DNA of 64,000 nt from Escherichia coli (lineage in GTDB: Bacteria; Pseudomonadota; Gammaproteobacteria; Enterobacterales; Enterobacteriaceae). Shown here one piece after another: positions 20,350-23,084 of this stretch. The notes below the pieces were generated by a model. It saw nothing but the letters and a program-made list of their open reading frames with translations. It did not search any database and had not been told where the DNA came from. The stretch lies in NCBI RefSeq assembly GCF_011045215.1, contig NZ_CP049202.1. One strand, 5' to 3'. The translations under genes were made by a program, and so were the position numbers. Positions within the stretch are counted from its first letter, which is position 1; each line of letters starts with the position of its first letter.

Positions 20350-20928
20350 TTGTCATTGTTACTTTCTGCATGTAGTTCAAAATCCTTATTTTTTGGTGAT
20401 TATTATAAAGCTGGCTTAGATAATAATATGTGTTTTTACCAGGAGGATAGTTTTTTTCATCCATCTAAGAATGGTACCTGTTTCTTTGAGTCTGATACCC
20501 TCATAGGAATGAGAAGTAATAAAGAGAGTTTCCTTGTTATGTTTTCAACTCTCGCTTCGTCAACAGGATATACAGCAGTTTATGATGTGGACAGAAATAA
20601 TGTTGATGAGTTATCAAACATTTTTATAAATTTTGTTAAATGGTCTGAGTTACTCCCTAAAGAAAGAGCGCGAGAGGCTCTATTATTTAATAATAGTTCA
20701 TCCTCGAATAATGAGGTGGCGGCAAGATGGAATTTAGAATATAAATATTTAACCAGCGCCCCCAATACAATGAACTATAATAAGTATAAAAACACACCTT
20801 TATTAAAAGTGAATAATAAAGGTGCATCATATTTAGGGGTCCCTCAGGAAGAGACCTGGTTATTAACACCAAGACAAGCAATTAAATTTGTATCAGTAAT
20901 AAAAAGAACATCAATGCTTTTAAAGTAG
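20350..20928 (+). CDS. Hypothetical lipoprotein
   Basis: 192-aa ORF with lipobox-like LLSAC near N-terminus; AT-rich. Confidence 0.4.
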   Translation: MSLLLSACSSKSLFFGDYYKAGLDNNMCFYQEDSFFHPSKNGTCFFESDTLIGMRSNKESFLVMFSTLASSTGYTAVYDVDRNNVDELSNIFINFVKWSELLPKERAREALLFNNSSSSNNEVAARWNLEYKYLTSAPNTMNYNKYKNTPLLKVNNKGASYLGVPQEETWLLTPRQAIKFVSVIKRTSMLLK

Positions 20929-21436
20929 TAACGGGAATCTGTTTTGAAACTCCTGTTCAGGGGAGTATGCCTTTTTCCTGTCTACAGAGATGCTTAACTG
21001 AACCGGTGGTTAAATTCCCTCGGAACACCATTAAATCGGTCCCCGACTGCATGACGCAGTTGCTACGGCCACATCTGTCCATGATGGGGTCCGCCTGGAA
21101 ACGGAAATTTTCCCACGCTAAGAGAATTGAGTTGAACGAGTGGTTACATCCAGGCCAGCTAACTCACTGAACGTAAAGGCTGTACGAAATGTTCTGACCG
21201 TCCGATAACCGTTTGGCTTACTTCCATACATTCCCTTGCGTGGATGTACAGAATTGTACGATTTCGGACACCAAAACGGTTGTTGTCCTGTTATTCAGGC
21301 GTTTCCTGAAAGTCATTTGGCTAAAAAATGGTCTTAACGTGGTTTATTTTCCGAATTCCAGGTGGACTCCTACTTGATTGTTTTTCTTTCATTCACCATA
21401 CTTATGCACATGTCTTTGCGCATAAGAGTAAACACC

Positions 21437-21685
21437 ATGAATACAGCCGCCTCTACTCGTAACAGCAACAAAAGAAGTACTAACGTTTATCTGACGTCCT
21501 CACTGGTTGATAAAGCCAGGAGTATGGGCATGAACCTGTCGGCAACACTGGATATCCTTCTGGCTCAAGCAATCGAGGCCAAAAATGTTGAGCAGGAAGA
21601 AGAAAAGGATGATATGCAAGTTATGAATAAATTTATGGCAAAAGCTGGAATGCTGACAGATGATGATTTCTTTGGGAGTTTGTAA
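21437..21685 (+). CDS. ccdA: CcdA-like antitoxin
   Basis: About 82 aa from internal Met of track ORF 21362..21685; resembles CcdA; stop overlaps start of the toxin gene (ATGA). Confidence 0.6.
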   Translation: MNTAASTRNSNKRSTNVYLTSSLVDKARSMGMNLSATLDILLAQAIEAKNVEQEEEKDDMQVMNKFMAKAGMLTDDDFFGSL

Positions 21686-22008
21686 TGCCAAAGCAATTTG
21701 ATGTATACCGCAATCCATCGGCCAAAACGAACAAACTTTGGCCATTCTACCTTATTCTTCAGAATGATTACTTTGACGATTTGATGACAAGAATTGTCGT
21801 TCCCTTGGTATCAAAACATGATATTGACCTCAATAAGAAAAGAATAACTCCATTAGTTAAAATTAATAAATCTGATTTCTATGTATTCACACCTGCGATA
21901 ACTTTTCTGGATGTAAAAAAAATAGATAGCAAAGATTTTATATGCAATATTTCCTTATCCAGAAATGAAATTATCTCCGCACTTGATGCTATCGTGACGA
22001 ACACTTGA
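21685..22008 (+). CDS. ccdB: CcdB-like toxin
   Basis: 107-aa ORF, N-terminus MPKQFDVYRN… resembles CcdB; translationally coupled to upstream antitoxin. Confidence 0.65.
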   Translation: MPKQFDVYRNPSAKTNKLWPFYLILQNDYFDDLMTRIVVPLVSKHDIDLNKKRITPLVKINKSDFYVFTPAITFLDVKKIDSKDFICNISLSRNEIISALDAIVTNT

Positions 22009-22520
22009 ACTTACATAAAAAGTCACTAGTAGGGGGGCAACAGGAACAGGATACTCAGAGTGAACAGTTATAACAAACAATTGATTCAATTTACTGTTCC
22101 AGTGCCCCCCAAATCCCAACTCCGCCGCTTGTTGCTGTCAGCATGTTAATGCTGGGGTTCTAAGCCGGAATCCCAGAAAATTCCGTCATTAAAGCTGACG
22201 GTCACTCAATCGGTCGTTTGTGTTTACGGACAAGCCACTTGGCCAAGTGTAAGTTAACCTACGCCACCCGATAACTCCAACATCTGCACATAGTACACCT
22301 TTGCCACTAGACTCGATTTATCCATCCCCAGCGTTTTATACACCTACGGCAACTTCTCTCTACACACAGACGCTTATCTTTTGCTTACCGTATGTTTTCG
22401 TGTGGTTGACTTTCAAACTCTAGGTTTAGTATTTTAATCTGTAACATATGTGCTCTACTTTTATTTCAATGAGTTTACAGGTGAGCAAGGAGCAAATTAA
22501 ATCACAGAAGGTCAAATGGA

Positions 22521-23084
22521 ATGAAATTTAGTAATGTTATAAAAATTGTAGTATTAGCTTTTTTTTCTCTTATTGTTTCTGGATGCACTATTATGCACAA
22601 TATAACATTATATGTAGAAGGGGTTGATACATACAAAAGTTCAGTTCAATCACTTTTATACAAAACAGATGATACTCCATACTATAACGGCCCAATTAAT
22701 TACTTTATTAAAGCGGACAGAAAAAAAAGATACATCACTTATATATATGATGTTGGAGCATTCATCGTAGGAATGCCGTCTTTTTACAAAGAAAACATCA
22801 ATCAAGATCTAAAGAAACTAGATATGTTTATTGACTGGGCCAGCCAACCGTATGGTATGAGAGTTAAAACAAAAGATAAAGTAGAATCACAATTACCAAA
22901 CAATAGTATAAAAGCAGCAAAAGGTATTACTGATTTTTCTTTATATATGTCGAAAAAAATAAACAATAATGAACCTTACTTAGTATATACACGTGATGTG
23001 GATTATTTTAATAAGGTCATGTTCTTGATTAATAAAAGAAACGCTGAAAAAATGAAAGGAGAGCTAACCCTATTCCTTAAGTAA
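22521..23084 (+). CDS. Hypothetical lipoprotein
   Basis: 187-aa ORF with lipobox-like LIVSGC; very AT-rich. Confidence 0.45.
   Translation: MKFSNVIKIVVLAFFSLIVSGCTIMHNITLYVEGVDTYKSSVQSLLYKTDDTPYYNGPINYFIKADRKKRYITYIYDVGAFIVGMPSFYKENINQDLKKLDMFIDWASQPYGMRVKTKDKVESQLPNNSIKAAKGITDFSLYMSKKINNNEPYLVYTRDVDYFNKVMFLINKRNAEKMKGELTLFLK

Follow-up and report, generated by a model that had tools for sequence, protein, structure and literature searches.

Why should a toxin-antitoxin pair of the CcdA/CcdB type lie between two genes for uncharacterised lipoproteins, and do the four genes belong together? The question is raised by an AT-rich segment in the 64,000 nucleotides of Escherichia coli contig NZ_CP049202.1 (assembly GCF_011045215.1) that were analysed here and are called the window throughout; the two lipoprotein genes are named lipo1 and lipo2. 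A first-pass annotation had suggested that the four genes may have been acquired as a unit. Our analysis indicates instead, with a probability of roughly 80%, that a plasmid ccdAB pair and two rare lipoprotein paralogues of mobile elements, lipo1 dead and lipo2 intact, share a mosaic bounded by insertion sequences (IS) and do not make up a four-gene system. The ccdAB pair came to lie beside the lipoprotein genes through history, and there is no sign of a shared role. The main value of the result is negative, in that the unusual lipoprotein flank reflects mosaic assembly and not a new system associated with toxin-antitoxin (TA) genes.

All four open reading frames (ORFs) were found on the + strand where they had been placed, and the central pair has the proposed identity. 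CcdA (82 amino acids (aa), 21437-21685) matches the Pfam family CcdA (PF07362) over residues 12-76 with E 2.5e-15, and has the same length as the CcdA annotated by RefSeq in locus L004; a longer mechanical ORF, 21362-21685, encloses its gene. CcdB (107 aa, 21685-22008), intact in the window, matches Pfam CcdB (PF01845) in full length with E 1.5e-26, residues 4-105 lying on positions 1-100 of the 101 in the model. The stop codon of ccdA and the start codon of ccdB share one base at 21685, as had been noticed, although the string at this point is TAATG (21683-21687) and not ATGA. Together with their regulatory region the two genes form a self-contained segment, 21371-22031 on the + strand, that recurs at 87-92% identity on 43.6-kb pKPC_UVA01/IncN-type plasmids, where RefSeq annotates CcdA and CcdB, on other plasmids of Klebsiella, Enterobacter and Citrobacter, on one Pectobacterium plasmid and in some E. 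coli chromosomes. The neighbours of the cassette there are unrelated, for example IS6 copies and parDE in K. michiganensis, and include neither lipoprotein gene. In the window, homology to the lipo1 locus of IncFII plasmids stops at 21372, and homology to the foreign ccdAB cassettes spans 21371-22031. Judged by sequence, the cassette is a type II TA module that is complete and moves independently, because its breakpoints are sharp on both sides and because it occurs on its own in other plasmids. The ratio of nonsynonymous to synonymous substitution rates (dN/dS) against the K. michiganensis cassette is 0.21 for ccdA and 0.08 for ccdB.

The closest solved relative of the toxin is Vibrio fischeri CcdB (PDB 2kmt, E 1.2e-13 in phmmer), the chains of the F-plasmid toxin giving E 0.09-0.27. 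By these comparisons the window CcdB is a member of the CcdB family of a non-F, V. fischeri-like subtype and not an orthologue of the F-plasmid protein. An imperfect palindrome, CTTATGCACA-N6-TGCGCATAAG, lies at 21401-21426 on the + strand, 11-36 nt upstream of ccdA. Its 10-nt inverted repeat is also kept in the 92%-identical K. michiganensis cassette, and the consensus promoter scan made no call there; the palindrome is a candidate operator. From what is known of the family, CcdB would trap DNA gyrase, labile CcdA would neutralise it, and the two proteins in complex would act at the palindrome to repress their own operon. Plasmid-free cells would then be poisoned, and the cassette would stabilise the IS-rich plasmid. 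An addiction module had been expected on a large plasmid of this kind and is indeed present, in an ordinary form. In itself the cassette is nothing new: it is another stabilising module on a plasmid full of IS, and close relatives already have it annotated as such.

The DNA around the cassette comes from several sources, the limits of the segments being taken from pairwise BLAST of the window against fetched loci. Positions 20333-20963 correspond to the lipo1 locus of E. coli IncFII-type plasmids at 96.7% identity. A terminator-like hairpin with a T-run follows 3' of lipo1 (20949-20966, + strand), and then a non-coding fragment of IncFII-type plasmid backbone (20987-21370) that adjoins repA in other plasmids. 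The BLAST match of this fragment covers 20987-21360 and lies near repA in many IncFII plasmids, split by IS91 in L002; in the IncFII plasmids with lipo1, 21086-21372 stands directly 3' of that gene. On the other side of the cassette BLAST found a remnant of an IS91-family transposase gene (22275-22367), near which relatives have 158 extra bases at window position 22217, and a second IS91-family remnant (23169-23433); the lipo2 homology segment, 22493-23077, lies between the two. The spacers between the genes (442-512 bp) contain the IncFII backbone fragment and IS91 remnants. When the whole region was compared by megablast with plasmids and complete E. coli genomes, no record covered at least 80% of it and only pieces matched, and an Rfam scan of 19500-24500 gave no match. 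The region 20334-23517 is what remains of an accessory region on an Escherichia-type plasmid, an IS-bounded mosaic built by successive recombination and IS events. Base composition had been described as low in GC for all four genes. This is correct for lipo1 (0.32), ccdB (0.33) and lipo2 (0.29) but not for ccdA (0.42); the three spacers have 0.43-0.46. The contrast with the neighbouring IS66 copies is real, as IS66-family elements stand on both flanks and the flanking IS have a GC content of 0.53-0.56.

The left boundary is an IS-derived segment (16481-20333) with 36-nt inverted repeats at 16481-16516 and 20298-20333 and an IS66-family transposase ORF at 18459-19979; homology to the lipo1 loci of relatives begins at 20333-20340, where this segment ends. 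It is a composite element of 3.85 kb whose repeats are 86% complementary and which has, besides the transposase, two ORFs of 304 aa and 190 aa on the - strand. The right boundary is an IS66-family element with a nested IS21-family element (23518-28720, + strand). Its 24-nt terminal inverted repeats lie at 23518-23541 (left, GTAAGCG...) and 28697-28720 (right), with a second candidate right end at 28642-28665, and the nested element has istA/istB at 26061-28500 and repeats of its own at 25998-26045 and 28540-28587.

A lipoprotein gene had been claimed on each side of the TA pair, and both loci are there, as are the lipobox strings LLSAC and IVSGC, but the first gene is not intact. In lipo1 (20340-20928, + strand) about 8 codons are missing from the 5' end, including the ATG, so that Met and the K/R-containing n-region are lost and the lipobox LSAC and the mature part are kept. 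Full-length homologues have 202-204 aa and start with MIFKRNILLVSLSLLLSAC. In the window an in-frame stop, TGA, stands at 20320-20322, and the sole candidate start is a TTG at 20350, which precedes the lipobox Cys by seven residues and gives the ORF 20350-20928 of 192 aa. Candidate lipoproteins were scored for a charged n-region, an h-region and a lipobox of the form [LVI][ASTVI][GAS]C, as in a substrate of Lgt and LspA. By this measure lipo1 as encoded in the window is not recognised; its full-length relatives are, and so is lipo2, with MKFSNVIKIVVLAFFSLIVSGC. Since the ATG and the n-region are gone, no normal lipoprotein signal peptide is possible and we regard the window lipo1 as dead. It is probably a pseudogene, the left-hand IS having removed its start codon and n-region. 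The lipo2 gene (22521-23084, + strand) is intact and encodes 187 aa, with the predicted signal peptide MKFSNVIKIVVLAFFSLIVSG followed by the lipobox C and with Thr at +2. A promoter-like site lies 5' of it at 22406-22435, a weak pointer only, as consensus promoter hits showed no enrichment relative to shuffled sequence.

The four genes had been expected to occur together in other genomes if they were a unit. Positions 20333-23517 are found at 99.4% identity over 3.2 kb in three E. coli contigs (L014, L015 and L016, the last in 13 samples). The four genes stand together only in these near-identical copies of the block, which is one evolutionary event, and the expected co-occurrence fails in diverged loci. 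In all three contigs lipo1 is intact and is preceded by the gene for a 770-aa muramidase protein, an overlapping ORF for a 148-aa secreted protein and another for a 74-aa secreted protein. None of these upstream genes is found anywhere in the window, which suggests that the left IS goes with a deletion or rearrangement and not with a simple insertion. The run of eight A in the window ccdB (21908-21915) has seven A in L014 and L016, where CcdB is frameshifted to 79 aa (L014:8641-8880; L016:4671-4910) and ccdA is intact. No examined copy of the block thus has all four genes intact, and among these copies ccdB is intact only in the window. Beyond what the first-pass annotation had noticed, the two lipoprotein genes are relatives that were inherited together, lipo1 is truncated, and the upstream partner genes of the relatives have been lost to IS.

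These observations bear on the idea that the four genes are one functional system, for instance a module for envelope sensing or defence, with CcdB controlled or triggered by the lipoproteins. The common strand and an arrangement kept at 99.4% identity in several E. coli isolates speak for it. The spacers of 442-512 bp, however, are unrelated DNA and include the terminator-like hairpin, lipo1 is truncated in the window and ccdB frameshifted in the near-identical relatives, none of lipo1, lipo2, CcdA and CcdB matches a PADLOC defence model, and every component is found without the others in diverged relatives. We consider such a system extremely improbable.

The separate occurrences, which also speak against the proposal of a joint acquisition, are as follows for the lipoprotein genes. 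In IncFII plasmids lipo1 occurs without ccdAB or lipo2, after the muramidase pair and before an AAA_15/AAA_21 ATPase gene and then repA. One such ATPase (L006:6946-8607, 553 aa, OLD/abortive-infection-like) lies between lipo1 and repA in the place of the ccd cassette. On a Salmonella plasmid lipo1 is alone, between a ParA-like gene and ardC. A truncated lipo2 is found alone in Erwinia between IS1 and IS630, and more distant relatives of lipo2, likewise alone in Morganella and Pantoea, stand between methylase and holin-lysozyme genes on a Morganella phage-plasmid, after ssb and psiB on a Pantoea plasmid, and between traG and radC/ardC on a contig resembling an integrative and conjugative element (ICE). 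Others lie beside genes of type IV secretion systems (T4SS), and one in a chromosome.

The only diverged locus with both lipoprotein genes is L005, where they are adjacent and convergent, 243 bp apart, and without ccdAB. When the window is compared with L005, synonymous divergence (dS) amounts to 0.578 in lipo1 and 0.573 in lipo2, equal values that argue for linkage of the two genes ever since these lineages separated. The lipoprotein genes would then be an old linked pair, and the ccd cassette would have been inserted between them, or lost from between them in L005. A mobile-element-like metagenomic contig, L031, offers a second case of family members in pairs, with two lipo2-family paralogues (6001-6594 and 7376-7996), 1.4 kb apart, flanking a perC-like gene.

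The relationship of lipo1 and lipo2 is visible only with profiles and structure models, as direct BLASTP found no significant similarity between them. With hhalign the two align at E 1e-4 and a probability of 51-57%, with signal peptides or with the mature parts only. With a hidden Markov model (HMM) built on the mature parts of the lipo2 family, each of the six lipo1 proteins scored higher than 1200 shuffled controls, and among the 1133 ORFs of all fetched loci this HMM matches the two families only; on the same ORFs the lipo1 HMM reciprocally matches a lipo2-family ORF. Both proteins have the motifs F-x2-W-[SA]-x-[LP]-P-x2-[ER]-R and N-x-[ET]-P-[LY]-L. The AlphaFold2 (AF2) models that we made, fold prediction having been suggested earlier, have a predicted local distance difference test (pLDDT) of 70 and 68 and a predicted template modelling score (pTM) of 0.67 and 0.66, one model being of each protein. 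Their elements follow the same order (four strands, two helices, three strands, helix), and both match Pur-alpha and the same Entomomonas protein, A0A3Q9JK14. We take lipo1 and lipo2 with moderate confidence to be distant paralogues, predicted to have a PUR/Whirly-like beta4-alpha repeat fold, because profile comparison, HMM scores, reciprocal matches, common motifs and models with the same element order agree.

The family is rare. A profile search of 1.84 billion representative proteins gave 23 matches at E <= 1e-3, most of them of 150-205 aa, and a lipobox was found by pattern in all but three. In AFDB50 there are eight significant structural neighbours, all of them unannotated proteins of Enterobacterales or Entomomonas. 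By tblastn against PLSDB lipo1 had no match and lipo2 two distant ones; lipo2 had none against phage genomes, and peptide-pattern scans from the lipo2 alignment (one genome per species; IMG/VR) gave no confirmed locus. Neither protein matches Pfam, NCBIfam, PHROGs (permissive thresholds included) or PADLOC. The 202-aa ORF beside the chromosomal member P0020 was considered as a further member and rejected.

That so rare a family has no match in these databases, and that lipo1 is truncated in the window, would also fit chance ORFs in AT-rich DNA, or decayed pseudogenes without function. We find this highly unlikely. The dN/dS of 0.17-0.22 for both genes against diverged copies indicates purifying selection, almost every one of the 23 distant relatives keeps a canonical lipobox, the AF2 models are consistent and compact (pTM 0.66-0.67), and full-length copies occur in several genera. 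The lipo1/lipo2 family is one of rare unannotated lipoproteins, mostly on conjugative elements and one phage-plasmid. Its definition, with a predicted PUR-like fold, purifying selection and recurrent pairs of paralogues, is a small positive outcome of the work.

The muramidase protein upstream of lipo1 in the relatives belongs to a polymorphic family of peptidoglycan hydrolases (loci L014:4023-6768 and L035:5001-7668) found on IncFII plasmids and in the chromosomes of Salmonella, Enterobacter and Citrobacter. The 770-aa protein has a C-terminal muramidase domain of the endolysin type (Pfam PF11860, E 3.9e-45; endolysin matches in PDB). Its N-terminal part of about 560 aa is conserved across Escherichia, Salmonella, Enterobacter and Citrobacter, and a WHGGIH / YMHIAPL stretch in this module resembles by eye the LytM/M23 motif. 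The C-terminus swaps between muramidase (PF11860), pesticin-like (PF16754) and GH19 domains, and the small secreted ORF that follows and overlaps the toxin differs accordingly, having 148 aa after the muramidase and 118 aa after the pesticin-like domain. A conserved N-terminus with a swapping C-terminus is the pattern of polymorphic toxins.

This pattern raises the question of whether the lipoproteins face the periplasm and confer immunity, cognate or orphan, to a polymorphic toxin that degrades peptidoglycan, the block in the window being the tail of such a locus from which IS removed the toxin gene. In the E. coli relatives lipo1 does lie 125-500 bp downstream of the 770-aa protein with its swapping C-terminal domains and of the overlapping 148-aa ORF, and the family member P0016 stands beside a row of small ORFs, one of which has a faint Imm42 match. 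We nevertheless rate immunity as a minority possibility, because the ORF that co-varies with the toxin domain is the overlapping one of 148 or 118 aa, which is the likelier immunity gene, and because the loci with the pesticin variant have neither lipo1 nor lipo2 downstream. No such toxin is found near lipo1 of the Salmonella plasmid or of L005, nor near any examined lipo2-family locus except L014-L016.

Several points weigh against a mosaic of an ordinary plasmid ccdAB pair, a dead lipo1 and a related lipo2 of mobile elements. Translation of lipo1 from the TTG at 20350, or by read-in, could still occur. On the NCBIfam equivalog for the F-type toxin, NF010262, CcdB scores only 27.6 bits, below the cut-off of 147, and its C-terminus is VTNT, without the WGI tail of F CcdB. 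The homology of lipo1 and lipo2 is statistically marginal, at an hhalign probability of about 55%, and the AF2 models, made from 7-8 sequences, are of moderate confidence only (pLDDT 68-70). Independent co-occurrence of lipo1 and lipo2 comes from the single case of L005, in a small sample, and with P0020 in a chromosome the family is not strictly limited to mobile elements.

A fimbrial usher gene and adhesin genes mark the window as part of an adhesin-rich Escherichia-type plasmid. The usher (4388-6796, - strand) is of the PefC/AfrB family and scores 1213 bits, above the equivalog cut-off. At 13859-16043 a gene for a trimeric autotransporter adhesin apparently falls into two ORFs, of 531 aa and 199 aa, that overlap, a frameshift being the probable cause, and an intact 1175-aa paralogue of it lies at 40385-43912 on the - strand. 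At 29109-30982 (- strand) a gene with a ParB-N domain overlaps one resembling phosphoadenosine phosphosulfate (PAPS) reductase, and the pair is conserved in related plasmids of E. coli and E. fergusonii.

As to what the lipoproteins do, their recurrent contexts are leading regions of conjugative elements, positions adjacent to T4SS genes, and a phage moron slot between a late-gene regulator and the lysis cassette. From these contexts, our best guess is an envelope function that serves the element, such as exclusion or the masking of a surface receptor. Proteins of the TrbK type have Asp at +2 and remain in the inner membrane, in keeping with the Lol-avoidance rule (PMC8923210). Under this rule the +2 residue of lipo1 and lipo2, which is Ser or Thr and not Asp, implies that both are predicted to be sorted to the outer membrane. 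It may be speculated that they represent a hitherto undescribed family, lipoproteins of the outer membrane with a PUR/Whirly-like fold that are borne mostly by conjugative elements and phage-plasmids, are often co-inherited as a divergent pair of paralogues and act at the envelope for the element. We hold this extended proposal to be doubtful at present. If true, exclusion or protection factors would gain a new structural class, one that might, for example, keep out incoming DNA or phage or mask a receptor.

The lipoproteins can in some respects be compared to TraT, TrbK, Llp of phage T5, Cor and Bor, which are likewise small lipoproteins encoded by accessory genes of conjugative plasmids, ICEs and phages. 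Neither lipo1 nor lipo2 has sequence or profile similarity to any of them (Pfam, NCBIfam, PHROG), and the TrbK-type proteins differ further by Asp at +2 in place of Ser or Thr. The likeness to PUR/Whirly-like proteins (Pur-alpha, 3k44; MRP1/2, 2gia; SsgA-like, 3cm1; Borrelia ErpC, 4bf3) is in predicted fold, at 5-10% identity and without detectable homology in sequence; most known members bind nucleic acids in the cytoplasm, whereas the lipo1/lipo2 family is predicted to be exported and lipid-anchored.

For the TA pair the nearest comparisons are V. fischeri CcdA/CcdB (2kmt, 3jrz), with full-length Pfam matches and about 33% identity in CcdB, and the ccdAB genes of pKPC_UVA01/IncN-type plasmids. 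In both, as in the window, the gene for the antitoxin precedes that for the toxin, with stop and start codons overlapping, and the products have 82 and 107 aa. The V. fischeri toxin ends in ITGI, the window toxin in VTNT. Compared with both, the window copy is distinguished by its place in a mosaic among IS remnants on an adhesin-rich Escherichia-type plasmid. The F-plasmid CcdA/CcdB (1vub, 3vub) belong to the same Pfam families and have the same gene order, and gyrase poisoning and degradation of CcdA are presumed to be alike. The window CcdB, however, is only about 23% identical to the F-plasmid toxin and lacks its C-terminal Trp-Gly-Ile.

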